Sequence record: NZ_CP014126.2
DNA: 64,000 nucleotides
Source of the DNA: a plasmid
Strand: one strand, 5' to 3'
The notes beneath the pieces are model-generated. The model worked only from the letters and a program-made list of their open reading frames with translations, searched no databases and was not told where the DNA came from. Position numbers and translations under genes: made by a program. Positions 3,192 to 51,190 of the stretch are shown here, piece after piece; the first letter of the stretch is position 1; the number at the start of each line of letters is the position of its first letter.

Positions 3192-4010
3192 ATGTCACAG
3201 ATAAGTTTTGCGGAATTTTTTGACCAGGTACAGGACGCGGCACCGGTTGTTCAGCATCCTTTACCTGCGCTGCCGGTAAAACTGCCTGCGGTTTCCCCAC
3301 CCGTGTTAAGCCTTGCAGCGGCGAGAAGACAGTTTATCAGCGTCTTCCATGAGACAGCGTATAACCTGCGCCGCTGGGAGGTGTTCAGCGATTTCATTAT
3401 CCTGGCGGCCAGTGAACTGGATATCGCCCGGATCAGAACGCCGGAAAGCATTGAACGCTGCCGGAAAATCAGCGAACGCTACAGCGCCGCCGACATGCGC
3501 AATATGCACGAACTGTTCGCGCTGATGGTATGTGCGCTTCAGGCTCAGTTTCATGATTTTCTGGGCGCTGTTTTTATGGAGCTGGAGCTGGGCGACGATC
3601 GCCAGGGGCAATATTTTACGCCTTACAATGTCCAGTCAATGATGGCACGCCTGCTGATGCCCGGCGTGATTGATACCATCCGGCGGGAAGGGATGTTTAC
3701 CTTGTCAGAGCCGACCTGCGGAGCCGGGGGAATGGTTATCGCTTACGCAGAGTGCCTGATTGAAGCTGGGCTTAACCCTTCCGTTCAGATGTTCGTCAGT
3801 TGTATCGATATTGATCCTGTCGCGGCGGATATGGCGTTTATACAGCTTTCCCTGCTGGGCATTGCCGCTGAGGTTGTCACCGGTAATACACTGACGCTGG
3901 AGTTTAACCGGGTACGCTATACACCGGCTTACTATCTCAACGATTTCGAAGAACGCCTTGAAAGTCAGCGCCGGATCAAGGCTATGCTGGCTTTTATCAG
4001 GGCAATGTAG
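3192..4010 (+). CDS. N6-adenine DNA methyltransferase-like protein (AdoMet-binding motif I present, catalytic (D/N)PP(Y/F) motif not found)
   Basis: FTPYNVQSMMARLL....LSEPTCGAGGMVIAYAE....CIDIDPVAADMA resembles the HsdM/gamma-class MTase N-terminal motifs. The 272-aa protein ends before any NPPF/DPPY. Methylase-like genes are common in IncF leading regions. Confidence 0.55.
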   Translation: MSQISFAEFFDQVQDAAPVVQHPLPALPVKLPAVSPPVLSLAAARRQFISVFHETAYNLRRWEVFSDFIILAASELDIARIRTPESIERCRKISERYSAADMRNMHELFALMVCALQAQFHDFLGAVFMELELGDDRQGQYFTPYNVQSMMARLLMPGVIDTIRREGMFTLSEPTCGAGGMVIAYAECLIEAGLNPSVQMFVSCIDIDPVAADMAFIQLSLLGIAAEVVTGNTLTLEFNRVRYTPAYYLNDFEERLESQRRIKAMLAFIRAM

Positions 4011-12654: not shown

Positions 12655-13920
12655 TTAATTTACGCGCGAAACAGGGATTCTCAGCGTGAACGTAGTACCC
12701 TTTCCGATTTCAGAGTGTGCCTTTATTGAACCGCTCATGGTTTTTATATAACTGTTCACAATAGTAAGTCCGAGTCCAAGACCTTGCCTGGTTTCTGATT
12801 CAGCACCTTGATTAAAAGGCTTGTAGAGGAACTTTAACTTACGCATGTCAAAGCCACATCCATTATCACTTACTCTTATCATTAAAATTCTATCGGTCAG
12901 TCTGAGTCTTACATCTATTAATCCATTACTGGTGTTTTTATTGGAATTATCTATCAGGTTGTGAATAATCGATATGAGCTTTTGCTTATCAGTTCGAATC
13001 AGTGTTTCAGGCAGGTTTACATGAAACTCTAATGTGTTTGTTGTTTCATTGAAGAGTGACATGCTTGATTCGATTATTTCATTGAGCCTGAAAGTTGTCA
13101 CATTTAAACCAACGTTTCCGATTTCAATCTTCGAGAACTCAAGGATCTCTTTTGTTTGCTGGAAGAGTTTATTTGAGTGTAATGAGATTTTTGCAAGATA
13201 TTTCTGAGTTGCGAGCATGCCCTCTTGGGGATCTATCATATCGCATGCGAGTTGAATTTTTTGGATTGAACCAGACATTTCGTGATAAATTGCCGAGATA
13301 AAGATATTCTTACCTTTTATGGCTGCTTTAAGTTTGGAGATGTGCATCCATAATACGATCATTAGAAGAAAAAGAAGGAATATACTTGCGAGCGCAGTTG
13401 TTTCTGCACTCATTGAGTTATCGCTTATTATCTTTTTAACTCTCTCAAAGTTTTTAATCTGAATACGATAGATGATTTGTTGGAGGTCAATCAAAGCCGG
13501 TTGCATTTCATCCATTTTACTTAGCAGCATTGCTTTTGTTGATGAAGGGTTTTCCGGATTATAGAGTGCGCCTAAATCAGCGCTTTGTTTTTCAATATTA
13601 CTTAGAGCTGATATGAAATCTGGCTCGTAATAAAACGTGCCGCTATAATTATATTTATTGCGAAGGATTAGTAGTTTTGAGTCAAAGACGGATTTACTGA
13701 TCAGGAAAGCATTCGGATTTTCAGTTTTATAAACTGCAGTTCTGGTACGTTCGAAAGCAAGAAATAATATTTCTGCAGTAGAATAGTTATCAAGAGTAGG
13801 AGCTATACTTCTGTACTGATTTTTTACTTCATTGAACTTCATAACAGTTAGATAGACGGAACCTCCAAAAAGCAGAGTCAGTACCAGGCCAAAAAATACC
13901 GCTGTTTTTTTACCTTTCAT
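12655..13920 (-). CDS. Sensor histidine kinase (2 TM helices, periplasmic domain, HisKA plus HATPase_c)
   Basis: H-box IYHEMSGS. N-box HNLIDNSNKN. G1 DNGCGF. G2 GLGLGLTIV. TM helices at the N-terminus and around aa 170-190. Confidence 0.8.
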   Translation of the reverse strand: MKGKKTAVFFGLVLTLLFGGSVYLTVMKFNEVKNQYRSIAPTLDNYSTAEILFLAFERTRTAVYKTENPNAFLISKSVFDSKLLILRNKYNYSGTFYYEPDFISALSNIEKQSADLGALYNPENPSSTKAMLLSKMDEMQPALIDLQQIIYRIQIKNFERVKKIISDNSMSAETTALASIFLLFLLMIVLWMHISKLKAAIKGKNIFISAIYHEMSGSIQKIQLACDMIDPQEGMLATQKYLAKISLHSNKLFQQTKEILEFSKIEIGNVGLNVTTFRLNEIIESSMSLFNETTNTLEFHVNLPETLIRTDKQKLISIIHNLIDNSNKNTSNGLIDVRLRLTDRILMIRVSDNGCGFDMRKLKFLYKPFNQGAESETRQGLGLGLTIVNSYIKTMSGSIKAHSEIGKGTTFTLRIPVSRVN

Positions 13921-14371
13921 CTACCGCCTCAATTCTGTTTATCTGCCAGACAGTGCGAGCATTTACTTCAAGATTATTCAACTCTGGATGCTGGTCCCTG
14001 GGATAAATGACAGCAAAAGGACCGAGATCTGAGACGGGTATCTGTTTTCCGTTTTTCTTGTAGGCAAGGATGACTCCATACTTGTCCAGTTCGGCTACGG
14101 GGAGGGTATAGCTGTAGTCATCAAGAGCAAAGATTCGCAACTGAGAGGCCTGAACACCGTACGATTTCAGGAGCGTAGTAAAAGTTACACCTTCGAATGT
14201 TGCTTCAGGGGTGAAATTAGTAGAGGTTTTAATAGTTGATAAAGCCAGATGTGACAGGTCTTCTGTAGTGATCGTTCTAGTCGTTTTACCAAAAACTAAC
14301 TGAAGCGTGTCTGCCAGCACCACAGGTGCTGACGTCATGGAGAGACACAATATACATGCCCTTATTATCAT
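13910..14371 (-). CDS. secreted/periplasmic hypothetical protein (153 aa)
   Basis: N-terminal signal peptide. Overlaps both neighbours, consistent with an operon. Confidence 0.45.
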   Translation of the reverse strand: MIIRACILCLSMTSAPVVLADTLQLVFGKTTRTITTEDLSHLALSTIKTSTNFTPEATFEGVTFTTLLKSYGVQASQLRIFALDDYSYTLPVAELDKYGVILAYKKNGKQIPVSDLGPFAVIYPRDQHPELNNLEVNARTVWQINRIEAVDER

Positions 14372-14811
14372 TTTTGTTTCCTTTTTCGCATGATCAGTTG
14401 GCCAAATTCATCGTCACCTTGCGGCACCCAACCTCGGGCTGCATAAAATCCTGCCGCAGAAGACCCTTTATCGGTGGTCAGTTCAATCTGGTCATCACTT
14501 CCGCTAAAGAACCAGTCTGTGATCCTTTCGAGTATCTCACTCCCAATACCTCGCCCGTGATACTCCGGTCTGACAAACAGGCCGCCAATGAGGGCATGGG
14601 GAATGTGTATACCCAGTCCGTAACCCACAAACTCGTCATTAATACTGCAGATCCATCCACCCCCCTGGCTGATGTCTTCAATTACCTGTTCTCTCTGCAG
14701 ATATTGTATCTGGTGAGCATGAACCATGTTTTCCTTTACAGAAAAACGGATGTCGTAAACTTCCTTGATGTGTCTTGGTTCAAGTTTCAGGAATTCCATT
14801 TTTAGTACCAT
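14368..14811 (-). CDS. GNAT family N-acetyltransferase
   Basis: RPEYHGRGIGSEIL acetyl-CoA binding motif. 147 aa. Confidence 0.75.
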   Translation of the reverse strand: MVLKMEFLKLEPRHIKEVYDIRFSVKENMVHAHQIQYLQREQVIEDISQGGGWICSINDEFVGYGLGIHIPHALIGGLFVRPEYHGRGIGSEILERITDWFFSGSDDQIELTTDKGSSAAGFYAARGWVPQGDDEFGQLIMRKRKQK

Positions 14812-14814
14812 TAT

Positions 14815-15585
14815 TTAATAGAAAATGTTTGCCAGAAGAATTGAGGATAAAATAAACACCCGCGTCGGTTTCTCGACAAGTTCAACACCATACTTGACGA
14901 TGGTTTCACCGATTTCCTGTTCATGCTGATTTAACTGTCCTGTTAACAAGATAATCGGAACTTTCTCATCTGTACTGCGAATTTTCTTAATGACTTCCTC
15001 TGAGTTTTGATCATAGTCAAGTAGCCAGTCAATAACATACCCATCATAAGATTCGCTATCAATAGCTTCACTGAGAGAGGCCGCAGTCTGAAAGGCCTGC
15101 CCGTCTATGCCGTACCTATTGGATACAGACTGCATTAACTCCAGGATTTCATTGTCATTATCAAGTATCGCTATTTTTGGGGCAGGCAAAAGGTCCATTT
15201 TCTTTACTTTCTTCATATCTTTGTGAATTTTTGAAGAAGTCGGGTTTATAATATAGAAGTTCTTACTTTTATATGCATAGTTAATACCAGGTTCTTTAAC
15301 CTCTACATCTTCATTACTTACTTCAACATTACATCGGATATGAATGTCGTTTACTATAAATAAGCCATTATAGTTACGCCTATCATCTAATGATTCATTG
15401 AAGAAAGAAAAAATACGTTTTACTTCCTGATAAGTTATGCCACGTTTTTCGTCTAGTTTTTGTTTGGCGCTCTTATATTGAATGTCTAGTATTTCAGCAA
15501 TAGTAGATGCCTGCTTTCTTTTTCCTATTCCCTTCCGTTCCAACAGGTTCAGGACTTTTTCAAGATTTAGCTTTGGTCTTTCCAA
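14815..15585 (-). CDS. Atypical response regulator: N-terminal HTH-like domain plus C-terminal receiver domain
   Basis: REC signature LDND...YDGYVIDWLL(D)...ILLTG(T)...VEKP(K) in the C-terminal half. N-terminal KQASTIAEILDIQYKSAKQKL is HTH-like. Sits in the position of traJ but on the opposite strand. Confidence 0.6.
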   Translation of the reverse strand: MERPKLNLEKVLNLLERKGIGKRKQASTIAEILDIQYKSAKQKLDEKRGITYQEVKRIFSFFNESLDDRRNYNGLFIVNDIHIRCNVEVSNEDVEVKEPGINYAYKSKNFYIINPTSSKIHKDMKKVKKMDLLPAPKIAILDNDNEILELMQSVSNRYGIDGQAFQTAASLSEAIDSESYDGYVIDWLLDYDQNSEEVIKKIRSTDEKVPIILLTGQLNQHEQEIGETIVKYGVELVEKPTRVFILSSILLANIFY

Positions 15586-15829
15586 TTGAACACCCGGCTG
15601 TATTGAATAGATTTAATAGTTTGCGTTTTTGCATTTCAATTTGGGTTAACTCAAAGATGATACACGACTGACGAACTTTTGAAGATAATTTTATGCTGTC
15701 AACTTATTGATATATATAGAGTTATTGTAAGTCCTCGCAATGGAATCAGAAAAATCCTCAAAAAATACTCAGCAAGGGGTTCACTTAGGGAGCGGTTATC
15801 TAGTAAAGTAGTGTAAGTGCCTTACATAC

Positions 15830-15994
15830 ATGTGCTCGCAGCGTAACGCCAAAGCTGTCGTGCTGTGTAAGGTGAGGCTCAATGTCAGTTTAAAAAAATA
15901 TGAACTCATGCTACGCCATAGCCTCACTGAATTTATTCTTGAATGGGGTCTAACTGCTACTGATGAGCTCATATATAAAATAATACATACATAA
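15830..15994 (+). CDS. candidate small RHH-like protein (54 aa), possible TraY analogue
   Basis: Not in the ORF track (under 60 aa). Translated by hand as MCSQRNAKAVVLCKVRLNVSLKKYELMLRHSLTEFILEWGL.... Upstream of traA, where traY sits in F. Confidence 0.2.
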   Translation: MCSQRNAKAVVLCKVRLNVSLKKYELMLRHSLTEFILEWGLTATDELIYKIIHT

Positions 15995-16045
15995 ACCTAT
16001 GCCGAAGTGTTCTCCACAAACATCTTTGCATAGCTGCGTTCAATC

Positions 16046-16082
16046 AGCCCCTCTCCTGTTCAGCATGTCTGGTGAGGGGCAG
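16046..16082 (+). other. hairpin gcccctctcc-N15-gtgaggggc in the traA upstream region
   Basis: 7-8 bp GC stem seen directly. Confidence 0.35.
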
Positions 16083-16287
16083 TTGATCGTTTTACAGATA
16101 CTTTCCAGATAGGTTTCCAACACCAGGGTTTTTTCTTCTTCTTTTCATTAACTAAGAGTTTTCTTTTCTCAGGAGGTGTGAGGTATCTAAAAGCCAAATT
16201 TCATTATCAATACTAGTCCCCGTTAATTAATGCATACGCTTTATGCGCGTATGAACTCAGTGTTTTTTTTAAACTGGATATTCACAA

Positions 16288-16710
16288 ATGAAAATTACCC
16301 ACTCCGTTACCGGTTTACCGGTGAACGTGGCGGTAGCATTGCCTGATGAGGTTAAGACTCACACAGGCAATGTATTCAGCCGCACCGCCAACCGTTTCCA
16401 TTCTGCTTCTTCTCTGTTCTTAACCTCCCTGAAATCCTCCCCCTCATTTCGCCACAGCCTAATGCTGTGCGCGTTGATGCTGGTTGTTGTGGCTTTTCCA
16501 CATATTGCTAATGCCACTGACCTGCTGAAGACGCAGCAGCAGGATGCCAGTGACACGTTTGGCCTGCAAAGCTCCGTTATGCGCTGGATTTATTTCGCAG
16601 AGATCATCATTTCAGTTGTGGGGTTCATTAAGACCCGAAATCCTCTGGTTTTTGTCGGCCTTATTGTGGTCCTGCTCGTAACCCGTGCTTTCTACGGTAT
16701 GGTCGGGTGA
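16288..16710 (+). CDS. traA: Propilin TraA (F-type pilin with long leader)
   Basis: C-terminal DLLKTQQQDASDTFGLQSSVMRWIYFAEIIISVVGFIKTRNPLVFVGLIVV... aligns with mature F pilin DLMASGNTTVKATFGKDSSVVKWVVLAEVLVGAVMYMMTKNVKF.... Confidence 0.75.
   Translation: MKITHSVTGLPVNVAVALPDEVKTHTGNVFSRTANRFHSASSLFLTSLKSSPSFRHSLMLCALMLVVVAFPHIANATDLLKTQQQDASDTFGLQSSVMRWIYFAEIIISVVGFIKTRNPLVFVGLIVVLLVTRAFYGMVG
16329..16340 (+). promoter_or_regulatory. ops-like element GGCGGTAGCATT (10/12 to RfaH ops consensus GGCGGTAGCGTG) on the non-template strand near the traA 5' end
   Basis: Sequence seen directly. An RfaH paralog is encoded 3.5 kb downstream. Confidence 0.4.
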
Positions 16711-16713
16711 TAT

Positions 16714-17019
16714 ATGGAAGACAGGGAATCGCGAAGGTATTACTTCCCGGAAACCCTAAACAACCAAAAGCGTTGGTTTGGTCTGCCACCTGAAGAGGCG
16801 GTTATTCTCATTGGTTGTGGCGGACTGGGGTTCTGGATTGACATGTTTGTCATCATGCTCATTACCGGCGGTGCGCTCTGGCTTCTTATACGTCACCTTA
16901 AGAAGGGGCAGGGGTCCTGGTGGCTTCTGAACCTTCTTTATTGGTATCTGCCCACCACGCTTTTCCGGACGCAGCTGCGGCGTGTTCCGGATTCCGGCAA
17001 CCGTCACTGGATGCAGTAG
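16714..17019 (+). CDS. traL: TraL (VirB3-like pilus assembly protein)
   Basis: YYFPETLNNQKRWFGLP..E...............KLKKGQGSWWLLNLLYWYLPT...........VPDS matches F TraL. Confidence 0.85.
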   Translation: MEDRESRRYYFPETLNNQKRWFGLPPEEAVILIGCGGLGFWIDMFVIMLITGGALWLLIRHLKKGQGSWWLLNLLYWYLPTTLFRTQLRRVPDSGNRHWMQ

Positions 17020-17070
17020 CCCTTCTGCCGCCTTTCGGGGCGGCACATTTCCCTGAAAATGGGAGGACTC

Positions 17071-17679
17071 ATGAAACTTCAGATAAAAGAAACGCGCCAC
17101 CGCGTGGTGGTATACACGCTCACGGGACTCGTCGCCCTCGTCTTTCTTCTTGCTGTTGCCTGTGGCATTACCGGTGCAATGGCTTGGTATTTTGCTCACA
17201 CGCAGAAAACCATCACCACTCCGATGACATTCGACAGACCATTTGTCTCCGATGTAACAGCCGGAGACGCAGCGCTGAATAGCATGCTTGTACGATCACT
17301 CGTTAACCTGCGTCTCAACGTCACGCCAGAAACGGTCGATCGCCAGCACGAGCTTCTTCTGAGTTTTGTAACTCCTGAAGCACGCTCTGAAATGAAAAAG
17401 GTGTTGGCTACCGAATCCGCATATGTGAAAAAAAATGGTATTGCCAGTGTGTATAGCATTGAGCAGGAGGCCACTGACCCTAAGACCGGCGATATCACGG
17501 TCGGAGGGACACTTCGAGCCAGTACTACAAACGGCAGCGTCAGCGTTGATCTGCCTGTTGCCAGGCAGGCCTGGCGGCTTCGTCTCCACTACGTAAATGG
17601 CCTAATCCGACTTGAAGCCTTTCCCGAAGTGTCCTGGTCCGCCTCTTTCAACGCAGATAGCTCTGGAAAATCATTATGA
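17071..17679 (+). CDS. traE: TraE (VirB5/VirB8-class pilus assembly protein)
   Basis: GGGAGG RBS. TITTPMTFDRPF and LRLNVTPETVD resemble F TraE. Single N-terminal TM helix. Confidence 0.8.
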   Translation: MKLQIKETRHRVVVYTLTGLVALVFLLAVACGITGAMAWYFAHTQKTITTPMTFDRPFVSDVTAGDAALNSMLVRSLVNLRLNVTPETVDRQHELLLSFVTPEARSEMKKVLATESAYVKKNGIASVYSIEQEATDPKTGDITVGGTLRASTTNGSVSVDLPVARQAWRLRLHYVNGLIRLEAFPEVSWSASFNADSSGKSL

Positions 17680-18407
17680 AAGCACAACTGATTGCCGCGT
17701 TCATCGCCGGTGTCATCCTGACTGGTCCGGTCAGCGCTACCGTACCCGGACCGGCTGGTACTGTATTTGAAAATAATGCGCATCTTAAAGCGATGATGAG
17801 TAATACCAGTCCAAATAAAATTGTTATCGATGGTGAATTGATCACTGGTATTACCGGCCCTGATAACGCCTATAAAAAAGCAAATACTGCCGATGGCGCA
17901 CTGCTGATAACGCCTCTTACGGGGCAGGATTTCACAATCTTCCTTGAAACTGCCAGCGGCGTAGGCGTCTCAATTGATGTATCACCGAAACCGGGAAACG
18001 GGCGCACTCTGCACCTTATTCCGGCAGATGCACCGGTGAAACCTAACCCTGACGCTAAATCATGGGAAGAAAGTCAGCCGTTCCAGAAAATACTGGTGAG
18101 CATTGCTCGCACCGTAGCGAATGGCGAGGTACCTGAAAACTATACCGAGATTAAGGCTTCGCGCGGTCCTGCTTATACCCCCCCCGCTGGCGTGCAGCTG
18201 ACACCTGAACGTCAGTTGGCAGGTTCGCATCTGCGGGTGATGCGTTATCGCATAAAAAATACAGGCTATGTGACCCGGATGCTTAGCGAGAAACAGTTCT
18301 GGCAGAAGGACGTGCGTGCAGTAATGCTCTCAACACAAACGCTTTATGCGAACGGTGAAGGCTTTGTATGGGTGATCTTCTCAACTGATCCGGAGGGCGG
18401 AGCATGA
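17676..18407 (+). CDS. traK: TraK (VirB9-like secretin-type protein)
   Basis: 243 aa with signal peptide. Position and size as in F. Confidence 0.75.
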   Translation: MKAQLIAAFIAGVILTGPVSATVPGPAGTVFENNAHLKAMMSNTSPNKIVIDGELITGITGPDNAYKKANTADGALLITPLTGQDFTIFLETASGVGVSIDVSPKPGNGRTLHLIPADAPVKPNPDAKSWEESQPFQKILVSIARTVANGEVPENYTEIKASRGPAYTPPAGVQLTPERQLAGSHLRVMRYRIKNTGYVTRMLSEKQFWQKDVRAVMLSTQTLYANGEGFVWVIFSTDPEGGA

Positions 18408-19792
18408 GCAATATCAATACCGCAACGCGTCGCCGGCAGTGGGTAATCACCGGTGTGGCCGTCGCGGTTATGCTGGCTGTGGGCGCGGGTATATGGGGGT
18501 ATTCAGAGCATCTTGCGGCACTGAAAAATCCTCCTCCGGCTCCAACCGCAGATCTGACAGGAGCAGGACTCGTCAGCAGTAGTTTTACCGCTGCAGTGTC
18601 AGAGTCCGTACTGACGCAGCAGCAGAACAAGACTGCCTCCCTTGAAAAGGACCTATCTACGCTGTCCAATAATGTCAGTTCACAGAACGAAGCGCTGACG
18701 CGCAAACTCGAACAGATAAGCTCGGCACTGGATAAGCTGCAGAGTCAGACGGACAAACCGCCATCGCAGAACGGGCCTGTCACTTCACAAACCGGACCAG
18801 GGACAACCGCTACTGGTCCAGCCTCGCTGGGACAGTCTGGTCCGGCACAATGGCGCGTAACTAACCCCGGTAACGGTCCGGGAGCAGGGCAGGGGAGTCA
18901 ATTCTATCCTGCACAGAGTCATAGTTTTTATCCCGGTAACGGTACTGTGCGCCCGGGTGGTCTGAGTCGAGATACTTTTACCTACGCTGCGCTCGCAGAG
19001 AAAAAGACAAAGCTTCCCTGGATTCCATCAGGATCGTTTTCAGAAGCGGTAATGATTGAAGGCGCAGATGCCAATGCCAGTGTTACTGGCCAGCAAAATA
19101 CCTCTCCAGTAGTCATTACTTTGTTGGGTGACGTTTCTATGCCCAACGGTAAAACATACAACATGGATCAGTGTCGCGTAACTGGAGAAATTTTCGGTGA
19201 TATTTCCAGCGAACGTGGCGAGGTCCGAACCAAAAACATCAGCTGCATACTGAAAAATGGCAAGCACATCGATATGGCTTTCGACGGTCATGTGTCTTAT
19301 CAGGGCAAGCAGGGTATTCGCGGCAAGCCTGTCATGCGTAATGGTGCAGTACTCGCTAACGCCGGATTTGCAGGGTTGCTATCGGGACTGGGTGAAGGTG
19401 TTCAGGCTGGCTCCACTACTACCGTCGGCATCGGTGCCACAGCTTCGCCAGCTGCAGGTGACATCTTAAGACAGGGACTAGGCGGCGGTGCCAGCAAAGC
19501 AGCAGATACGCTGAGTCAGTACTACATCAAACGCGCCGAGCAGTATCACCCTGTTATTGATATTGGTGCTGGCAACTCCGTGACAGTCGTATTCCAGCAG
19601 GGATTCAGGCTCGAAACCATTGAGGATGCTGAGGCGGAGAAAGCGCTAAAAGACGCGCCACAGGCCACTGTTCAGCAGGCTGCAGCAGTGGTGCCTGCCA
19701 GCGTCAATACAGGTAGTGCACCGGTTCTAAATCCTGATGAAGTACTGCGTCAGGCCAGTCAGTTACGTCTCGGTGATACGATCCCTCAATGA
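18404..19792 (+). CDS. traB: TraB (VirB10-like)
   Basis: 462 aa. N-terminal TM helix, Pro/Gly-rich linker, conserved C-terminal beta-barrel region. Position as in F. Confidence 0.8.
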   Translation: MSNINTATRRRQWVITGVAVAVMLAVGAGIWGYSEHLAALKNPPPAPTADLTGAGLVSSSFTAAVSESVLTQQQNKTASLEKDLSTLSNNVSSQNEALTRKLEQISSALDKLQSQTDKPPSQNGPVTSQTGPGTTATGPASLGQSGPAQWRVTNPGNGPGAGQGSQFYPAQSHSFYPGNGTVRPGGLSRDTFTYAALAEKKTKLPWIPSGSFSEAVMIEGADANASVTGQQNTSPVVITLLGDVSMPNGKTYNMDQCRVTGEIFGDISSERGEVRTKNISCILKNGKHIDMAFDGHVSYQGKQGIRGKPVMRNGAVLANAGFAGLLSGLGEGVQAGSTTTVGIGATASPAAGDILRQGLGGGASKAADTLSQYYIKRAEQYHPVIDIGAGNSVTVVFQQGFRLETIEDAEAEKALKDAPQATVQQAAAVVPASVNTGSAPVLNPDEVLRQASQLRLGDTIPQ

Positions 19793-19803
19793 AGGAGTTT
19801 TCA

Positions 19804-20337
19804 ATGAAACAGTGGTATGTGCTGCAAACGCTTTTTGCACAGGAGAAAAGGGCTGAGGCACATCTTATTAATCAGGGAGTTGAATGTTACCTACCATTTT
19901 TCACCTGTCAGTTACTGGCTGACGGGAAAGTGAAGCCGGTTAAAGCACAACCCCTTTTTCCTGGATATTTGTTTGCAAGGTTTGATCCGGAAGACATTCA
20001 CACAACCACTATAAAATCTACACGAGGCGTATCCACGATTGTTCGGTTCGGAAACCGCATTGCTGTTATGTCTGATGAAGAAATGAATCGCTTAAGGCAT
20101 GGTGCGGACTCGGCAGCGAAGGCTGACATGCAGTCTCCTGCGCATGGTGACAAAGTGTTGATTGCAGGCGGCGTTTTCGGAAACCTCGAAGCTATCTGGC
20201 ATGAGCCTAATGGTGCAAAACGGGCAATATTATTGCTGAATTTTATGGGCCGCCTTATTGAGTTGGATTTGAAAAAGGCCCGATCTGAGGGAATGCAGAT
20301 TAAAAGACTGACAGGCAGTAACCAGGCTGCGGCCTGA
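19804..20337 (+). CDS. RfaH/NusG-family transcription antiterminator paralog
   Basis: GAAGGAG RBS. WYVLQT..., FDPEDIHTTTIKSTRGVSTIVRFG closely matches E. coli RfaH FDPEVIHTTTINATRGVSHFVRFG. KOW-like C-terminus. Confidence 0.8.
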   Translation: MKQWYVLQTLFAQEKRAEAHLINQGVECYLPFFTCQLLADGKVKPVKAQPLFPGYLFARFDPEDIHTTTIKSTRGVSTIVRFGNRIAVMSDEEMNRLRHGADSAAKADMQSPAHGDKVLIAGGVFGNLEAIWHEPNGAKRAILLLNFMGRLIELDLKKARSEGMQIKRLTGSNQAAA

Positions 20338-20364
20338 GTGGTTTGACTCTTGAATATTTGAAAT

Positions 20365-20808
20365 TTGCAGAATATGGAGCATCGTATGAGACACTCATTC
20401 GTTAAAAGAATCATTAAAAATAATAAGTTACTAGTTAGCCTGACTATTACTGTCCTGACTTTCAATATGGTCACGTTGTTTTGGCTCAGGCACAGCGGAT
20501 ATCTGACATGGGAATCATTAAACTGGTCAGTTTTGAGGGTGATTGCTCTGGTCTCAGCATTAATGGCCGCTTTAAATCTTTACCTGCTCTTGAAACGCGA
20601 CGAACTGAGCTCCGTCTACCTTTTACCTGCTTCGGTTCCCTGGCTAATGGCGATGCTTTGGTACGTTTGCAAGAGTGTTTGGTATTGGTCGCTTCCTTCC
20701 TCTCCGGTTCAATATTTAATTTTTGGTGCGCTGGGAAGTTTCTTCTTCACTCTGGCTGTTGTAGCTGCAATGGCTAACCAACATGAAAGTATGGATAAAC
20801 GGATTTAG
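20365..20808 (+). CDS. inner-membrane hypothetical protein (4 predicted TM; occupies traP/trbD/trbG position)
   Basis: Hydrophobic segments. No recognisable similarity to F TraP. Confidence 0.3.
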   Translation: MQNMEHRMRHSFVKRIIKNNKLLVSLTITVLTFNMVTLFWLRHSGYLTWESLNWSVLRVIALVSALMAALNLYLLLKRDELSSVYLLPASVPWLMAMLWYVCKSVWYWSLPSSPVQYLIFGALGSFFFTLAVVAAMANQHESMDKRI

Positions 20809-21000
20809 TGCAACGCAACAAGCGATTATGAACGGTCAGATACCGCGTTACTCCGGGTTTTACTCAGCTGAGTAAAACCCGGAAGTTATAGAAAAACGTC
20901 ATATTGCAACCTTCACCTGCTCTTTTACTGCTCGTTCAGTTTAATCCCAACGCACCACTCCCTTATCAACTGCGGCCCTTCCGTATCTGAGGAAACTACT

Positions 21001-21549
21001 ATGCAAAAATTATTTGCGTGCGCACTGTTGTGCGCTGCGCTGACCGGCTGCGCCGGTATGAACTCTGATTTTGACTGCAACAAAACTGCGACCGATCAGT
21101 GTCTGTCGATGTCCGATGCCAGCAAACTGGCATCGAAGCATAAAAGCCTGGACGATCTGAGCGCAGAGAAGGAGGCCGGCCCAAAGCCTGCCGCTGAGGC
21201 GCTGGCGACGCCCGGCAATGCGAAATCCGCCATCAACCCTTACCGCTCTGTTAGCGTGGCCTCTCTGTCACCGCGCCCCATATCCGGACAGATTGCTAAT
21301 TCCGGGGACATCCGGGCATCAACACTGCCGGTCCACTCCGCATCACTGTCCGGAACCTCAGTCGCTGCAGCCGATGCCAACGGGCCCGGACATGCAGACG
21401 CACGTCGTATTCCTGACGCCACTCAGAGATTGTGGATTGCGCCTTGGGTGGATGAGCAGGACAGCTTCCATCAACCCGCTGTGGTTGAATTTGTTAAGCA
21501 GAAATCCCGCTGGGATGAAGACTTTCGCGTGATTAGCGAGGGAGAGTAA
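21001..21549 (+). CDS. traV: TraV lipoprotein (VirB7-like)
   Basis: Lipobox LTGCAG. FDCNKTATDQC matches F FECNATTSDTC. C-terminal LWIAPWVDEQDSFHQP matches F LWIAPYIDNQDVYHQP. Confidence 0.85.
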   Translation: MQKLFACALLCAALTGCAGMNSDFDCNKTATDQCLSMSDASKLASKHKSLDDLSAEKEAGPKPAAEALATPGNAKSAINPYRSVSVASLSPRPISGQIANSGDIRASTLPVHSASLSGTSVAAADANGPGHADARRIPDATQRLWIAPWVDEQDSFHQPAVVEFVKQKSRWDEDFRVISEGE

Positions 21550-21642
21550 TGAATAAACATTTTCCCTTCAAATCACGACATGAAACGTTCTCGCCCGACG
21601 CAGCCGGTGCTGCTCGGGGAGCGATAAAATCTGGAGAATGGC

Positions 21643-24288
21643 ATGCTCAATAACGTTATCGATCATCTTGCCGGCATTCTCAGCAGCGGGCGAGGTGAGG
21701 GCGGGGCAAAAGAAGCTGCCGCCATGCTACGTCAGAACTTCAATTATCCGTCTCTGAGTGGTCTGTTCCCCTGGCGCGCTTATGACGATACAACCGAACT
21801 CTACGTCAATAGCCGTTCCATTGGATTCGTTATGGAAGTGGCACCGCTGGCAGGTGCAAATCAGCAGGTGGTGCAGGCACTGGATGATCTGCTGCGCAAA
21901 ACATTACCCCGCAAAACTCCCGTCACAGTGTTGATGGTCGCCAGTAAGTGTGTTGGAGATCTGCTGGATGAGGGGCTTAGTCGAGATATGTGGAAAGGCA
22001 ATATGGCTCCACAACTCAATGCGATTACTAAGGCTTTTTGGGAGCGCTCAGCACTCAAGGGGTTGGCGAATAATCGCGATTATCCGCTGTACCTTCGTAA
22101 CTACCGCGTTTTTCTGGTGTACGCACAGGCCGGACGTGGTGGTATTCGGGCTATGGAAGAGGCAGTTCAGATGGGTAAAACGCTGCGCGTTTCGTTGCAG
22201 GCAGCCCATATGGATACCCGCCGCGTCGGGCCAGAAGAGTTTCTTTCTGTGGTTCGTGAGCAGCTCAACTACCGGCCGGGGCAGGTCACTACGAGTAATA
22301 AACAGTGGAACAGTGATCAAGAGCTGCACCGCCAGTGTGTTGACCCCAGCACAGAGCTTGAAGTGCATCCCGGTTTTCTTCGGCTAACCACGGCTCTTCA
22401 GCCGGAAGATCGAACCCTCGATAAAAGCGAAACTGATGGTGTCGCTCGTACACGCATTGTCAGTCTGCAGCTGACCCGAACACCCGCGAAGTTTGCGCTG
22501 TGGCAGGCTTCAGACAACCTGCAGAATATGCGTTTCCCGGATCTTGGTATTCCCTGCCCGTTTATTCTGAGCTGGACGGTATGCGTTGAAGATCAGGTAA
22601 AAAGTCAGAACTCTGCATTCAGCAAAGAGCAGGACCTGGGTAAGAAAGCAGGAACCTCTTATGCGAAGCTGTTTCCTGGTACCGAACGTGCTTATCAGGA
22701 GTGGCGCGGACTGCGTCAGGAACTGGCCAACAATGAAATCGCCATGTGCGATATGTCACTGAATCTCACACTCTTTACACCGGATGATGCGAGCGAGCAG
22801 AAAAAATGTGAGCTGGCAGCCATCAATGTGTTCCGTAAAAACGAGCTTGAAATAGCAGCACCGCGCTTTCAGCAGTTACGCAACTGGCTTACCACTTTGC
22901 CGTTTATGATGCAGGAGGGTTTATGGGACGATATGCGTCAAATGGGAGCGACACTCCGCTGTAAAACGTTTAATGCAGTCAATCTTATGCCCGTAGTTGC
23001 CGAACGGCAGATGTCGCCGCGCGGTATTCCGCTGGCCACTTATCGCAACCAGTTGGCCTTTTTCGACATGTTCAGCAAGCACAACGGAGCCAGTAACTTT
23101 AACTGTGCCGTGACGGGCACGTCAGGTGCGGGCAAGAGTTTCCTTATCCAGGGAATCCTGCGAGAGGTACTGAATACCGGGGGCTTTGGCTGGGTAATAG
23201 ACATGGGGGGTAGCTACAGGAACTTCTGCCGTCAGGCGGGTGGGGCATATCTTGATGGGGAAACGTTGCGCTTTAATCCGTTTGCCAATGTCACAGACAT
23301 CAGCGAGTCATCCGAGGGCATAACTGGTCTGATGGCCGTTCTGGCAAGTCCGCAGGGAAATCTGGATGAGATCAGTGAGGCTATTCTGCAGAAAGGAGTG
23401 GTCGCGGCCTATGAAGCGAAGCAGAACAAGGCGCGTATTGACGACGTAGTCCATTATCTTGAATCGTCAGATGTGACTGAAAAATATGCCAGCCAGCCAA
23501 CCATAATGAGTCGAATCAACGAACTGGTACTGCTGCTGGATCAATGGTGTACCTGGGGAGCCAACGGCGAATATTTTAACTCAGATGAACCTACTCTTGA
23601 CGGTGAAACACGGTTTACTGTGCTGGAGCTGCAGGGACTGGAGAAACGACCGAATCTTTTGTCCGCGGTGCTGTATTCGCTCATTTTGGCGATCCAGGAA
23701 AAGATGTACCACTCACCTCGTAGTCTGAAAAAAGTGGCCATTATCGATGAGGCCTGGCGTCTGTTCAGTGGACAGAACCCACATGCAGCACGCTTTATCG
23801 AAAAAGGCTATCGCACGGTTCGCCGCCATCGAGGCGCATTTATCACCATCACCCAGGGCATGAAAGACTTTACCGGATTACCGGGAGAGCCTGCTCCTTC
23901 CGCCGCCGCCGCCGCGTGGGACAACAGCGGAACAAAAATCACGCTACTGCAGGAGGCGAAAGCGCTGAAAACCTACCTCAATGCTAACCCCGATCAGTTC
24001 AGTGAGATGGAAACGGAAATTATTCGTGGATTCCAGAAGGCAATTCTTACGGGATACAGCTCCGCAATGATTTCAATGGGAGAGCAGAGTTCATTTTACC
24101 GCGTGTTTGTTGACCCGCTTACGCGAGCCCTCTTCAGCACCACGGGAGAGGACTATGAATACATGACGGAGGCACAGAATGCAGGAGCGACCAGCGAGGA
24201 AGCTGCGTGGCTTCTGGCCTGTGAACCACACATGTATCAGGCCGAAATGCAGGAACTGCAGTTATGGGCTGGCCTGACTGTAACCTGA
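21643..24288 (+). CDS. traC: TraC (VirB4-family T4SS ATPase)
   Basis: Walker A GTSGAGKS. Extensive colinearity with F TraC (LRFNPFANITD, RIDDVV, YFNSDEP, ITITQ). Confidence 0.95.
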   Translation: MLNNVIDHLAGILSSGRGEGGAKEAAAMLRQNFNYPSLSGLFPWRAYDDTTELYVNSRSIGFVMEVAPLAGANQQVVQALDDLLRKTLPRKTPVTVLMVASKCVGDLLDEGLSRDMWKGNMAPQLNAITKAFWERSALKGLANNRDYPLYLRNYRVFLVYAQAGRGGIRAMEEAVQMGKTLRVSLQAAHMDTRRVGPEEFLSVVREQLNYRPGQVTTSNKQWNSDQELHRQCVDPSTELEVHPGFLRLTTALQPEDRTLDKSETDGVARTRIVSLQLTRTPAKFALWQASDNLQNMRFPDLGIPCPFILSWTVCVEDQVKSQNSAFSKEQDLGKKAGTSYAKLFPGTERAYQEWRGLRQELANNEIAMCDMSLNLTLFTPDDASEQKKCELAAINVFRKNELEIAAPRFQQLRNWLTTLPFMMQEGLWDDMRQMGATLRCKTFNAVNLMPVVAERQMSPRGIPLATYRNQLAFFDMFSKHNGASNFNCAVTGTSGAGKSFLIQGILREVLNTGGFGWVIDMGGSYRNFCRQAGGAYLDGETLRFNPFANVTDISESSEGITGLMAVLASPQGNLDEISEAILQKGVVAAYEAKQNKARIDDVVHYLESSDVTEKYASQPTIMSRINELVLLLDQWCTWGANGEYFNSDEPTLDGETRFTVLELQGLEKRPNLLSAVLYSLILAIQEKMYHSPRSLKKVAIIDEAWRLFSGQNPHAARFIEKGYRTVRRHRGAFITITQGMKDFTGLPGEPAPSAAAAAWDNSGTKITLLQEAKALKTYLNANPDQFSEMETEIIRGFQKAILTGYSSAMISMGEQSSFYRVFVDPLTRALFSTTGEDYEYMTEAQNAGATSEEAAWLLACEPHMYQAEMQELQLWAGLTVT

Positions 24289-29377: not shown

Positions 29378-31224
29378 AGCGTGCCCTGCTGCTTTCTTTA
29401 TGTCTGATGGCGTCCGGCGCATTCGCAGATGCGGTAAGCGACGCTTACAACGCGGGTGCAGGTTATGCCGGATCGAATAAGGGACAGGGAACCTCTGCTG
29501 CGAAGGGGACTGACCCGGCGTCAGTCATTCCGGGCTACACAGCCAATCCCCCGCAGGGCGGCTATTACGGCGGCGTACAGGGTGGCGACGGTGGCATAGC
29601 GGATAAAGGGCAGACCCAGATCGGAAGTAACGAAGCGGGACAGGCAGTCACGGATTCTTCAACGAAGAACCCGCCTGTAACCATCGATCCCAACGCTGAC
29701 TTTATCCAGAACGGCAAGAACGCAGAAGCCAACAGCGGCTCTATCGTGGACGGTACCAACAGCCAGTGCACCACGAAAGTTGTTTCAAAGTCGGTATTCG
29801 AAAACTTCACGTGCGACAGGGACGTAGCGCAGGTCCAGACCTGTGCCCGAACCGGCAGCGTTATCGTCACGGGCTCAAGCCATACGGAAACCCGGACGAT
29901 GAATATGCTGCTCAAAAACGCACGCCGCTCGGGCAAACAGGTAATAGTGGATTTCACGTTCCCTGAAACGGCTACGCTCGTCAGCGGCACCACGCAGCTT
30001 GTTTACACGCCGGCCCCGTCCTATAACTCCGGGGTTAATTACGTCACGTCGATTCTAAACAATAACGTTACGCTCCGTTACGGTAAGAAGGCAGCGGACA
30101 ACCTGGGTATCGCAGGGCTGCAGGTTAATGCAGGTCAGGTTTACTCTGCCGTGATTACCCCTGATGGCTCACGTATTGATGCCACCATCAATACGCTTAT
30201 TAAGTACATTAATGACGGCACTACCCTGTTCCACCTCGACGTGACGTTTAACGTGACGGTTTCCGATAAAAAGGCCGACACAACCTGGTCTGAAAGCTGC
30301 AGCTTTGACAAATCCCAGGCTACCGCCAGCACCGGCAGTGTTTGCACCGATCCGGGCGGCTCCCGCTCGGTTACCTCTGACGGCCAGACCTTTACCCAGA
30401 CGCAGGGCTGCTGGCAGTACCAGGACAGCTACATCGTGCCTGTTAATTCCACCGGTAACTGCGCCCAGCTGATGTCTGACAGAAACTGCACTATCGCTGC
30501 ACGCGGCTGTACCGAGGCTGAAGGCGGAACGTGCATGCATGAGCAGGATACATACCAGTGTCAGACCACTTTCACCTCTCAGGGACTGCTGTGCGGCGGA
30601 CAATATCTTTGTCAGAGCGGCGATTGTGACGGCACTGACGGTGCCGGCGATAGCGGCTTTGATACCGCCGTGGCCAAACTTGCCGGTCTTGCCTCCGCTG
30701 GTGATGACGTTAAAAACGGCGATCAGATAGACATCAAGGCCTTTACCGGACAGGCGCTCTACTGCCGCAAGGCGATGGCGGGCTTCTCAAACTGCTGCGT
30801 TGATACCGGCTGGGGAAACAGCTCGGGGCTGGCCAACTGCAACAGTGACGAAATGGCTATCGGCAAAGCGAAAGCTAAAAAGGTCACGGTTCTGGTCGGT
30901 GAAGCCTGCAATAAGGCTGTGCTTGGGGTGTGCGTACAGAAGAAGCAGGCTTACTGCGTGTTCGGCGGCAAACTTGCCCGCATCATTCAGGAGCAGGGCC
31001 GCCGCGATCAGCTGCACGTCAGCTTTGGCAGCGGAGACTCCCCGAACTGTCGTGGCATCACGGTTCCTGAACTGCAGGCCATTAACTTTGATCTGATTAA
31101 CTTCCAGGACTTCTACAGCGACCTGATGGCCAACCAGAAAATCCCTGACTCAGCGACGATGGTTCAGCAGGCTAAGGACCGCATTGCCGCGCAGGTTAAT
31201 GCGCAGACAGGAGGTAAAAAATGA
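29374..31224 (+). CDS. traN: TraN (mating-pair stabilisation outer-membrane protein)
   Basis: 616 aa. Signal peptide. C-terminal Cys-rich region (about 20 Cys) typical of TraN. Confidence 0.85.
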   Translation: MKRALLLSLCLMASGAFADAVSDAYNAGAGYAGSNKGQGTSAAKGTDPASVIPGYTANPPQGGYYGGVQGGDGGIADKGQTQIGSNEAGQAVTDSSTKNPPVTIDPNADFIQNGKNAEANSGSIVDGTNSQCTTKVVSKSVFENFTCDRDVAQVQTCARTGSVIVTGSSHTETRTMNMLLKNARRSGKQVIVDFTFPETATLVSGTTQLVYTPAPSYNSGVNYVTSILNNNVTLRYGKKAADNLGIAGLQVNAGQVYSAVITPDGSRIDATINTLIKYINDGTTLFHLDVTFNVTVSDKKADTTWSESCSFDKSQATASTGSVCTDPGGSRSVTSDGQTFTQTQGCWQYQDSYIVPVNSTGNCAQLMSDRNCTIAARGCTEAEGGTCMHEQDTYQCQTTFTSQGLLCGGQYLCQSGDCDGTDGAGDSGFDTAVAKLAGLASAGDDVKNGDQIDIKAFTGQALYCRKAMAGFSNCCVDTGWGNSSGLANCNSDEMAIGKAKAKKVTVLVGEACNKAVLGVCVQKKQAYCVFGGKLARIIQEQGRRDQLHVSFGSGDSPNCRGITVPELQAINFDLINFQDFYSDLMANQKIPDSATMVQQAKDRIAAQVNAQTGGKK

Positions 31225-49441: not shown

Positions 49442-50094
49442 TGGGGCATTTACTACATATAGTAGATATAGCAGCTGGCACAGCCACTACATATAGCGTT
49501 ATCCGCAGAAACAGTAGATAAGCTCGGTTTACCACTGCCCCTTACGCACCAAAATTATGGGCCACATGCAGAAGTCTGAAATTAATCCTCCGGACTCTGC
49601 AGTGTCCCGCTAAAAAAGTGGAGCATCACTGAATAGACAACTTAACTACTTCGGCTGTTCGTTCCTCGCTACGCTGCGGTACGCCTCAACCAAAGTAGTT
49701 AAGTCGTTGCCTCGTTACCTCTCTCATACACGTCCATCAACTTACCATTCTTAATGCTGGTCACAGCAATGTAGGTCCATAAACCAGATTTCAGATCCGC
49801 CATATATTTGATTTTGCTCTGGTGAAAAGTGGAACACTGACATGACATCAGAATTGATTTCATGATGTATTCCTAAGCGACCGATACTAATTGAGGTCAT
49901 TCTGTACTGGATTTAAATGGGACAGATGGGTATCCTTTTCAGAATTCGCCGGATGGCGATCCTTTTAGATCCTCGCCTGAGAATTGTGGAGATTCAATGG
50001 CGGGATGGCAGAAAACCTGTGACCGGACATGCGCGGCGCGGGGAAGAACAAACCGGATGGGACGTATCCGTAAAACGTCCAGGGTGCAGAGCTT

Positions 50095-50185
50095 CAGTTT
50101 CACCGGGCTCTGAATGCAAAAACCCCCTGATTCTTCTCAACTTTGGCGGGCTGGCAAGAAATCAGGGGGTCCAAAAGCAGGCGCT
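50095..50185 (-). ncRNA. copA: CopA-like antisense RNA region of the IncFII-type replicon (two stem-loops; loop contains TTGGCG)
   Basis: Stems cagagc...gctctg and accccctgattcttc...gaagaaatcagggggt seen directly. TTGGCGGG loop as in R1/R100 CopA. Located in the repA leader. Confidence 0.4.
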
Positions 50186-50254
50186 GTGCCTGTAAAGGAT
50201 TATAACGCATGCAATTCATAAGACAACCCCTGTCCGCCATAAGTACTGGACAGG

Positions 50255-51190
50255 GTGAATGACCATATTTTAATCGGGTCAGTTAGCCCGACTTCTGAAA
50301 ATGACAGACGCCGCCGCGGCGATCATGACGTCACCTGCAAATGTCCTGAACCGCAGTGGTTCGCACCTGATGGCTATCGTCCGCTTCCGGGTGAGTTTGG
50401 CCATGCCATGCGCCGTCTGGTCGTCAAAGAGAAAACCAGCGGTAAATGGAAGCTGCGTTTCCGGCCGTCACTCCATCCTTACTTCACGCAGTACCGTAAA
50501 GCTGCAGGCCGCGCTCGACACTTCAGGCCTGAACGACGTGCGCTTATCGATGCGATATTCCCTCTGCTTGTTCAGCGTGCCGACATGGCCACCTGGGTTG
50601 TGACGGTCAATGTCAGCCGGCTGGCCAGTGAGCTCAGTCCGAAAGACAGTGAAGGCAATGCCATCCCTGAAACCCGCGTAGAACCCTGCCGTCTATCGCG
50701 TCTATTCCCGGAACTGGCCCGGTTTGGCCTTATCGAAATGCCTGATCTGGAATGGGACCCGATTGAACAGTACTGGATGCCCCGGCATATCATTCTCACG
50801 GAACGTTTCTGGCAGCTGTGCGGCGTTAACATGGATAAGCTGCTTCTGCAGCGAAATCAGCGCATCGAGGCTGAAGAGGAAGGTATTCTCGAACCCGGTA
50901 CGCGTGACTCCGTCAGGGCAGCCCGTCGGCGCTGGTATGAAAAAGCCCGTATAGCGACGCTGCTGAGTCGGCGCGAGAAGGCAGTACGGGGGAAAAGGCG
51001 CAATAAGCTGGGCAAGCTCCCCCTCGATGAACGGCGCAGCACGATGGCCAGCTGGCTCATTCGCACACGGCCGAACCACGAACTGATCAATCTCGACGCA
51101 GACAGTTTTGATCGCCTGGTGTGGCAGCATCTTAACCAGCTGGAGCTGGGCCTCGGCTACGAGCCTGCACCTCACGACGTAGTTCACTGA
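50255..51190 (+). CDS. repA: IncFII-family replication initiator RepA1-like
   Basis: RRALIDAIFPLL, LSRLFPELARFGLI and WDPIEQYWMPRHII align with R100 RepA1 RRAIDALLQGL, TRALTFLSELGLI and YDPLIGCYIPTDI. Confidence 0.7.
   Translation: MNDHILIGSVSPTSENDRRRRGDHDVTCKCPEPQWFAPDGYRPLPGEFGHAMRRLVVKEKTSGKWKLRFRPSLHPYFTQYRKAAGRARHFRPERRALIDAIFPLLVQRADMATWVVTVNVSRLASELSPKDSEGNAIPETRVEPCRLSRLFPELARFGLIEMPDLEWDPIEQYWMPRHIILTERFWQLCGVNMDKLLLQRNQRIEAEEEGILEPGTRDSVRAARRRWYEKARIATLLSRREKAVRGKRRNKLGKLPLDERRSTMASWLIRTRPNHELINLDADSFDRLVWQHLNQLELGLGYEPAPHDVVH

Follow-up and report, generated by a model that had tools for sequence, protein, structure and literature searches.

The question raised by this locus is whether an F-type conjugative plasmid that encodes a paralog of the antiterminator RfaH within its own transfer (tra) operon also carries the DNA site at which that paralog is loaded onto RNA polymerase. 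The locus lies in a 64,000-nucleotide stretch of plasmid record NZ_CP014126.2, the whole of which is referred to here as the window. Positions 15900-21600 are 99.7% identical to the Pantoea agglomerans plasmid pT88c_C (NZ_CP134722, 163 kb, MPF_F), and the window belongs to an F-type conjugative plasmid of ~163 kb from this species. The F plasmid needs the RfaH of its host (PMC7593976). The tra operon considered here contains an rfaH gene of its own and, close to the start of traA, its first gene, a 12-mer (GGCGGTAGCATT) that resembles the operon polarity suppressor (ops) element recognised by RfaH. Our answer is that the plasmid's own RfaH probably uses the traA site, a reading that is best supported in one of two classes of site, termed class A below; for the other, class T, recruitment of host RfaH is a serious alternative.

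To judge from profile and pairwise comparisons, the paralog is a genuine full-length RfaH-clade protein inside an F-type tra operon. The preliminary description of this DNA had recognised an RfaH-like protein of 177 amino acids (aa) between traB and traV, where F carries traP, trbD and trbG, and both the assignment and the location are borne out. The N-terminal domain matches Pfam PF02357 (NusG-NGN) at 1.4e-22 over residues 2-98, and the whole protein scores 150.5 bits with the NCBIfam RfaH model PRK09014 (cutoff 124) and 142.7 bits with TIGR01955, narrowly below its cutoff of 144.5; the competing UpxY, LoaP and NusG models reach 71, 43 and 42 bits, respectively. Residues 1-158 align with E. 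coli RfaH (2oug) at E=2.9e-32, with identities of 45/100 in the N-terminal and 19/46 in the C-terminal domain, and PDB chain 9ik0, labelled RfaH, is a weak match at 37.6 bits. RefSeq, through the Prokaryotic Genome Annotation Pipeline (PGAP), already names the open reading frame (ORF) rfaH, and its predicted start (MKQWY) agrees with that of all homologs. In a tree, the tra-embedded RfaH proteins form a monophyletic clade apart from chromosomal RfaH; unlike the latter, which is unlinked to its targets, they are plasmid-borne within a tra operon. The HTT motif (H65-T66-T67), to which contact with the β gate loop has been attributed, is invariant in all of the paralogs.

Shi et al. 2017 identified the interface residues that hold RfaH in its closed state (PMC5587751). 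Among the paralogs F51, P52, R138 and L142 are kept, the position of I93 is occupied by M, V, L or I and that of F130 always by W, while E48 is replaced by Q in most of the proteins; this pattern is compatible with autoinhibition, short of proof. AlphaFold2, run with broad and with clade-only alignments, gave a confident N-terminal domain and modelled the C-terminal domain as β strands at low confidence (predicted local distance difference test scores of 48-74).

The ops-like 12-mer begins 41 nt after the A of the traA start codon. It agrees with canonical ops (GGCGGTAGCGTG) at 10/12 positions, namely positions 1-9 and T11, and differs at positions 10 and 12, which upholds the match, with its first nine positions identical, in the preliminary description; the offset is here read as 41 nt. 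Its core, GCGGTAGC, equals canonical positions 2-9, and the ops consensus of the non-template strand, GGCGGTAGnnTG, with its core G2-G8 and T11, is fitted on the sense strand with G12 replaced by T. The site is promoter-proximal, at the head of the same ~30-kb operon and ~3.47 kb 5' of rfaH. By analogy with E. coli ops (PMC5995543), RNA polymerase is predicted to pause at U11 (Table 1).

By count within the window the 12-mer is unremarkable: six sites are found with up to two mismatches against 5.3 expected. The exact 8-mer GGCGGTAG is present in five copies against 1.5 expected, a number reached by 2/100 shuffles. The extended motif GCGGTAGC[AT]TTG has one copy in the window, at traA, and the near-identical plasmid outside the window contains no GCGGTAGCNT; a search of the whole plasmid, as the preliminary description had proposed, thus finds the extended motif at traA only. 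The other four copies of GGCGGTAG (4779+, 13921-, 30320- and 40174-) were considered as targets and rejected, as they lack T11 or are antisense, and the copy at 13921 is also without a counterpart in a related locus (L002). Within the window, canonical ops is matched most closely by GGCGGTAGCCTG at 30316-30327 on the minus strand (11/12, with T11 and G12), antisense within traN; by our estimate about 0.3 matches of this quality are expected by chance. Rfam covariance models returned only noise across 15500-21700, and the region of canonical ops in F is equally without a match, so that this negative says little about the site.

Conservation was assessed in relatives of the locus. Of 403 plasmid records in which a tblastn search detected NusG/RfaH-like genes, 66 gave matches at E≤1e-25. 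The loci taken forward comprise 25 that bear rfaH (21 annotated plasmid loci together with metagenomic ones, some of them near-duplicates), with protein identities of 43-99%, from three families of Enterobacterales and from metagenomes; the genera include Pantoea, Erwinia, Rahnella, Brenneria/Prodigiosinella, Ewingella, Cedecea and Phytobacter. A contig scan with the paralog returned only chromosomal RfaH loci, at ~44% identity, which served as outgroups. All 25 loci share the gene order traA-L-E-K-B-rfaH, and in 25/25 a GCGG[T/A]AGC core lies 42 nt after the traA ATG, at a distance of 3436-3532 nt from rfaH. The site is also kept in a truncated tra region that has lost rfaH (L025).

It is this conservation, rather than the count in the window, which stands at chance level, that marks GGCGGTAGCATT as non-random. 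The explanation that the 12-mer is a chance match and that the paralog acts as a general NusG with no specific site could appeal to that count, and to the β-barrel KOW domain, as in NusG, that AlphaFold2 models in its low-confidence region. It is contradicted by the persistence of the site's position in the 25 rfaH-bearing loci, in L025 and in an Enterobacter plasmid described below (L161), and is also opposed by the residues at interface positions 93 and 130, which are never the NusG-type E and V, and by the profile scores, at 150 bits for RfaH against 42 for NusG; we regard it as hardly credible. The traA site is almost certainly, on comparative grounds, a functional RfaH-family loading site.

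A conserved stretch inside a coding sequence could also have been kept for a reason unconnected with RfaH, such as the propilin leader peptide (A-V/E-A-L/C-P), mRNA structure, or a site for a regulator or small RNA. The conserved block does sit in a real ORF with the start codon at a conserved distance. The nucleotide pattern, however, points elsewhere. In seven non-redundant class-T loci the frequency of the majority base is 0.94 at +39..+59, but falls to 0.48 on the downstream side and to 0.52 and 0.62 in the two blocks 5' of it; codons 15-18 read GCG GTA GCW TTG in all seven, and ops position 10 is the only synonymous site that varies. This is also a variable position of the E. coli consensus. 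The codons that neighbour the block encode unrelated amino acids, and in Ewingella a 1-nt deletion places a stop in the upstream traA frame, so that the motif is retained intact but out of frame. The peptides AVALP of class T and AEACP of class A are chemically different, V to E and L to C being non-conservative changes, and are encoded by near-identical DNA. The frozen synonymous sites, the unrelated flanking codons and the Ewingella deletion therefore indicate selection on DNA or RNA and not on the peptide.

As to mRNA structure, CGGUAGC can pair with a conserved downstream GUUAUCG in several loci, and the TTGCCTGA extension pairs with a downstream complement. The window, ZJU23, JT1 and Eb661 lack the long-range pairing, however, and in class A it is disrupted with no compensating change. 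An 8/8 core match to the known ligand of the protein encoded downstream, which changes together with the residues of that protein's pocket, would be hard to explain otherwise, and we judge a cause unrelated to RfaH to be very improbable.

Some of the relatives merit separate mention. In Ewingella americana pB61b (L015, about 1973-2030) the frameshift turns the TAG of the ops core into an in-frame stop, and as a result of the frameshift PGAP starts traA at a TTG inside the motif. This plasmid, typed as non-mobilizable, has a gap of ~2.7 kb following traV for which no traC coding sequence (CDS) is listed; it is possibly a decaying system. In a metagenomic locus of the P0008 subclade (L028), traA is present as two tandem copies, of which the first is truncated where the contig stops and the second has no site; a further two ORFs separate traB from rfaH. 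Two further PLSDB entries (L022, NZ_OY843411; L023, NZ_CP047533) were rejected as plasmid rfaH loci; their genes lie in the chromosomal fadBA-ubiD-rfaH-tatDCBA-ubiB region, and these ~95-kb "plasmids" are probably mis-binned chromosomal fragments. A scan of metagenomes for the motif gave mostly chance 17-mer matches, with relevant genes in L061 and L086 only. In L086 (Ga0214472_10050464, 3601-3617, minus strand) the same extended motif, as CTGCGGTAGCTTTGCCTGA, lies about 150 nt after a distant RfaH-like gene (29% identity) and heads a polysaccharide-type operon with glycosyltransferase and NAD-epimerase genes.

Considering which protein reads the site, the most informative evidence is a difference between loci in base 6, which divides them into class T, with the core GCGGTAGC (T6), and class A, with the core GCGGAAGC (A6); the longer forms are GCGGTAGCATT and GCGGAAGCCTG, respectively. 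The 15 loci of class T have GCGGTAGC(A/T)TT sites, and their proteins have I64 and T68 in 15/15 and H20 in 14/15, with N20 in the remaining one. The 10 loci of class A have GCGGAAGCCTG, with A at position 6 and with T11 and G12 retained, and their proteins have Q20, V64 and A68 in 10/10 and S, Q or E at residue 23. In the structure of E. coli RfaH bound to ops, the flipped-out T6 enters a pocket of H20, R23, Q24 and R73, and T68 is among the contacts (PMC5995543). Residues 20, 64 and 68, which change with base 6 of the site, thus include T6-pocket and DNA-contact positions, and this joint change of base and residues points to the paralog as the reader of the site, in class A at least. The substitution T6A ranks among the four strongest ops defects seen in vivo with E. 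coli RfaH (PMC5995543; Zuber 2018), so host RfaH should serve class A poorly. One strain, Pantoea sp. At-9b, carries two plasmids, pPAT9B05 (L019) and pPAT9B02 (L020), that both have a class-A rfaH and identical CTGCGGAAGCCTGCCCG sites; given these identical sites, cross-talk between their tra operons is likely.

The RNA around the site was also considered. A hairpin ending 1-3 nt before the core is predicted in every one of 14 loci folded, and by manual count on the predicted structures the stem ends 10-12 nt before U11 in 13/14. Across these loci the mean minimum free energy of 30-nt segments has a sharp minimum of -11.2 kcal/mol just 5' of the core, compared with -1 to -5 in the flanks. In the subclade of the window, the upstream hairpin has 86.7% of cells paired versus 27-58% when it is slid, with compensatory changes in 4/9 pairs and a covariation score reached by 1/500 shuffles. 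In a pause signal of the his type, some 10-12 nt separate the 3' end of the hairpin from that of the paused RNA. A second predicted hairpin lies downstream and is formed by the conserved TTGCCTG extension and a complementary stretch 3' of it; class-T loci have analogues with different pairing partners (Eper z=-4.65, YJ76 -2.87, L061 -2.54, ZJU23 -2.22), and no comparable downstream hairpin was found in class A. The modelled hairpin 10-12 nt before the pause, together with the fixed distance of 14 codons from the start, suggests a hairpin-assisted pause that may be synchronised with the first ribosome.

From the sequence, homology, synteny, conservation and covariation set out above we infer a scheme of pausing, binding, antitermination, feedback and ribosome coupling, as follows. 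RNA polymerase would pause at U11, 41 nt into traA, where the non-template GCGGTAGC core would fold into the small ops hairpin, with G5 and T6 exposed, and be bound by an RfaH-type factor. The first plasmid RfaH would be made by basal read-through or after priming by host RfaH; thereafter the plasmid RfaH, encoded 3.47 kb downstream in what, from synteny and strand, appears to be the same transcript, would load at the traA site, stay on the polymerase and suppress pausing and Rho-dependent termination over the remaining ~30 kb of tra genes. A paralog encoded downstream of its own loading site would constitute a positive feedback loop. The site in traA, probably ancestral, presumably served host RfaH, with the paralog a later arrival, and one sub-lineage would then have changed base 6 of the site from T to A together with H20Q, T68A and I64V at or near the T6 pocket, leaving a pair that host RfaH serves poorly.

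A further-reaching version of the scheme holds that there are two co-evolved orthogonal pairs, GCGGTAGC with H20/T68 and GCGGAAGC with Q20/A68, the latter insulated from host RfaH, and that the position of the site 14 codons into traA, between hairpins, couples the loading of RfaH to the first ribosome. We put this forward tentatively, as it is possible but on balance doubtful. If true, it would amount to a pause-then-escape checkpoint like the pauses of attenuator leaders, in which transcription and translation would be coupled in one complex from the very beginning of a 30-kb operon.

The strongest competing explanation is that the traA site is a normal ops for chromosomal RfaH, as in F, and that the paralog is redundant, a back-up in RfaH-poor hosts, or has some other target or role. 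It draws on plasmids that have the site and no paralog. The Enterobacter plasmid L161 (CP056561), whose TraB is 52% identical, has GGCGGTAGCGTC at 2231-2242, with G1 at +41 of traA, and is without any rfaH-like sequence. Its traA-to-traB segment matches 211 plasmid records of an IncF lineage, mostly from Enterobacter and Citrobacter, and no rfaH lies under a match among those listed for these records; the site itself was read in L161 alone. The preliminary description, which paired the paralog with a cognate loading site, needs correction on this point, as the in-traA placement is not tied to the presence of rfaH. In F and a Klebsiella IncFII plasmid, by contrast, traA is without a site and canonical GGCGGTAGCGTG lies shortly 3' of traV, between it and traR, so that the ops of F-type operons occupies one of two places, within traA or past traV. 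The in-traA site is probably ancestral, older than the paralog and usable by host RfaH, in which case the paralog, whose clade is monophyletic, would have been a later capture, and the Enterobacter lineage of L161 probably depends, judging by this one member, on host RfaH acting through an intragenic ops.

Several observations weigh against use of the site by the plasmid's own protein, the first being this near-canonical ops in L161, a paralog-less member of a lineage of 211 records. The class-T core is identical to canonical ops at positions 2-9 and 11, and for this reason host RfaH alone could explain the conservation of class T. The E. coli side chains that contact ops directly are K10, H20, R23 and R73 (PMC5995543); the paralog in the window has L10, H20, N23 and R73, with Q24, T68 and T72 kept. 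Two of the four contacts are replaced throughout the tra clade, R23 being lost in every tra-embedded protein, while K10, H20, R23 and T68 are all retained in the chromosomal RfaH of E. coli, Salmonella and an Erwiniaceae relative. In E. coli RfaH the substitution K10A causes a strong defect (PMC5995543), and with both K10 and R23 replaced in the window paralog, its recognition of DNA may not be strictly canonical. G12 is T in GGCGGTAGCATT, and a change of G12 to C eliminates pausing at U11 in vitro, while recruitment was still seen (PMC5995543). The site lies within traA codons 14-18, inside the ORF, whereas canonical ops sites are in untranslated leaders (PMC11880322, PMC11685472). Neither AlphaFold2 run produced an α-hairpin C-terminal domain, in what is the low-confidence region of the models. 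Class A is a single clade nested in the tra-embedded RfaH clade, so the change of protein and site is one event kept through later divergence and not repeated covariation. The upstream hairpins of class A and L161 were not significant against shuffles, RNAalifold found no hairpin common to the 14 loci, the stem registers differing between subclades, and a crude scan gave no excess of terminators to be overcome.

Against the exclusive use of host RfaH, the paralog has been held at the same operon position in 25/25 loci at 43-99% protein identity; in class A, base 6 and pocket residues have changed together, in the direction that is strongly defective with E. coli RfaH in vivo; and no further copy of the extended motif, as a possible alternative target for the paralog, was found on the plasmid. 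We therefore consider the host-RfaH explanation unlikely for the family as a whole, serious as it is for class T, and prefer the reading in which the plasmid's own RfaH uses the traA site. The preliminary description had gone further in proposing a self-sufficient feedback operon. The feedback topology exists, with the site 5' of rfaH; self-sufficiency we can only infer, because the site is probably ancestral and, as in L161, usable by host RfaH. Taken together, self-sufficiency and feedback are a plausible interpretation of the sequence.

The features of the locus are collected in Table 1. In the window the genes run traA-traL-traE-traK-traB-rfaH-hypothetical membrane protein-traV-traC, followed by traD and the gene for a MobF relaxase, and the operon extends to roughly position 48600.

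Table 1. Positions in the window of the putative loading site, the predicted RNA structures and the surrounding genes.
Feature	Coordinates	Strand	Basis
HTH/response-regulator gene, divergent, 5' of traA (candidate tra regulator)	14815..15585	-	Pfam BetR + Response_reg; annotation
traA (propilin, 140 aa, long leader peptide; first tra operon gene)	16288..16710	+	ORF; PGAP annotation of 99.7% identical record
Predicted upstream RNA hairpin CGUUACCGG-UUUA-CCGGUGAACG; 3' end 12 nt before U11	16305..16327	+	Folding, -10.8 kcal/mol, z=-2.38
Conserved nucleotide island GTGGCGGTAGCATTGCCTGAT, traA codons 14-20	16327..16347	+	Majority-base frequency, 7 non-redundant class-T loci
Ops-like 12-mer GGCGGTAGCATT (G1..T12); predicted pause U11 = 16339, first base of traA codon 18	16329..16340	+	Sequence
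Predicted downstream RNA hairpin; ops positions 8-12 + GCCUG pair with CAGGCAAUGU	16336..16373	+	Folding, -20.2 kcal/mol, z=-5.99, 0/200 shuffles
traL, traE, traK, traB (pilus assembly; between site and rfaH)	16714..19792	+	Pfam TraL, TraE, TraK_N/C, TrbI; annotation
traB	18404..19792	+	ORF, Pfam TrbI, annotation
Shine-Dalgarno AAGGAG of rfaH, 6 nt before ATG; overlaps traB stop (19790-19792)	19792..19797	+	Sequence
Plasmid rfaH paralog, 177 aa (NGN + KOW-type C-terminal domain)	19804..20337	+	ORF, domain/profile matches
Hypothetical membrane protein, directly 3' of rfaH	20386..20808	+	ORF, PGAP CDS
traV, traC (first distal tra genes expected to gain from antitermination)	21001..24288	+	ORFs, Pfam, annotation
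traV	21001..21549	+	ORF, annotation

The traA product matches Pfam TraA at 4.5e-05 and NCBIfam TraA_TIGR at 9.8e-13, the latter below cutoff. By eye, a Shine-Dalgarno-like AGGA or GAGGG lies 8-9 nt 5' of the traA ATG in most relatives, with a weaker GGA in the window. The crude scan, itself of little informative value, found no promoter-like site on the plus strand between traA and rfaH, nor upstream of traA. The multi-pass membrane protein encoded after rfaH has no Pfam or NCBIfam match and may or may not belong to the rfaH system. In many relatives a 4-nt overlap between the rfaH stop and the following ORF hints at translational coupling; homology among such ORFs is not assumed.

Upstream of traA, the divergently transcribed region 12656-15585 (minus strand) encodes the helix-turn-helix (HTH)/response regulator, a GNAT acetyltransferase, a molybdopterin-dependent oxidoreductase-like protein and a HAMP histidine kinase. 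In other lineages that share the site, a DNA-binding regulator of the Arc family replaces the HTH/response-regulator gene, and the upstream regulator module has therefore been swapped between lineages. No traJ or traY ORF was found between the regulator and traA (15586-16287), and a TraY-domain gene occupies the equivalent position in 73%-identity relatives (L002, L012). MOB-suite types the near-identical record as non-mobilizable, despite its annotated MobF relaxase and TraD. A Shedu immune-nuclease gene adjoins repA (window about 49567-50937, minus strand), and elsewhere on the plasmid there are copper and arsenic resistance, several copies of umuDC and a thiol-redox cluster (gorA, DsbA, thioredoxins, alkene reductase) similar to the one that gives onion-associated Pantoea tolerance of thiosulfinates.

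The choice of targets by specialised NusG paralogs is under active study, and class A offers a natural experiment on the specificity of factor and site, in that the one base separating its site from canonical ops is the flipped-out base, and its protein, a close relative of RfaH, has corresponding substitutions at or near the pocket; such specificity could be tested through two or three residues and one base. The two ops placements and the probable dependence of some F-type plasmids on host RfaH also bear on proposals to target RfaH-type factors against plasmid transfer.

Resident NusG paralogs in some plasmid tra operons were reported by Wang et al. 2020, who proposed that they act in tra antitermination and confer a host-range advantage, found that plasmid rfaH genes form a separate branch in Enterobacteriaceae, and stated that the recruitment modes of operon-resident paralogs were unknown (PMC7593976). 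No description of the traA site, its two classes or the matching pocket substitutions was found in the open-access papers and preprints searched. A plasmid-borne antiterminator with its own site has nevertheless already been published, in 2025 (PMC11880322); the F-type family is a new example, and because the basic idea is in print the advance is incremental, its most interesting aspects being the T6/A6 specificity pair and the intragenic, hairpin-flanked placement.

The nearest published counterpart on a plasmid is PrfaH (ActX) of IncX plasmids, likewise a NusG-family antiterminator, co-transcribed with type IV secretion system (T4SS) genes that it activates, with a site upstream of its own gene and autoregulatory; transfer does not take place without it, and the ops-like non-template sequence to which it binds lies in the 5' untranslated region (UTR) of its gene (PMC11880322). 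PrfaH is, however, encoded by the first gene of an operon for a VirB-type T4SS, with its site in the 5' UTR at -42 to -25, and that site is unlike ops, having a stem of C2:G13/G3:C12/G4:C11 and a loop GGTCAT (PMC11880322). The factor described here is, on a comparison of the proteins by description, a close RfaH relative, encoded by the sixth gene of an F-type operon with a near-canonical intragenic ops.

The UpxY proteins of Bacteroides and their opsX sites are similar in that they are operon-resident NusG paralogs with ops-like non-template hairpins (GCG...AGC stems) and nascent-RNA pause hairpins reaching about -12, and in that paralog and site pairs have diverged in specificity (PMC11685472). 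They differ in being encoded by the first gene of capsule operons, with leader sites and with cross-inhibition by UpxZ (PMC11685472). No UpxZ-like partner was identified at the rfaH locus, where no dedicated search was made and the ORF next to rfaH is uncharacterised.

The closest comparison remains that with the F tra operon and E. coli RfaH, with which the present system shares ~45% identity in the NGN domain, the HTT motif, Q24, T72, R73 and the interface residues, the DNA core GCGGTAG, and a long F-type tra operon as the target. It differs in the replacement of K10 and R23, in having T for G12 and in the predicted hairpins that flank the site, and also in that the factor is plasmid-encoded inside its putative target operon and that the site lies 41 nt within traA and not between traV and traR.

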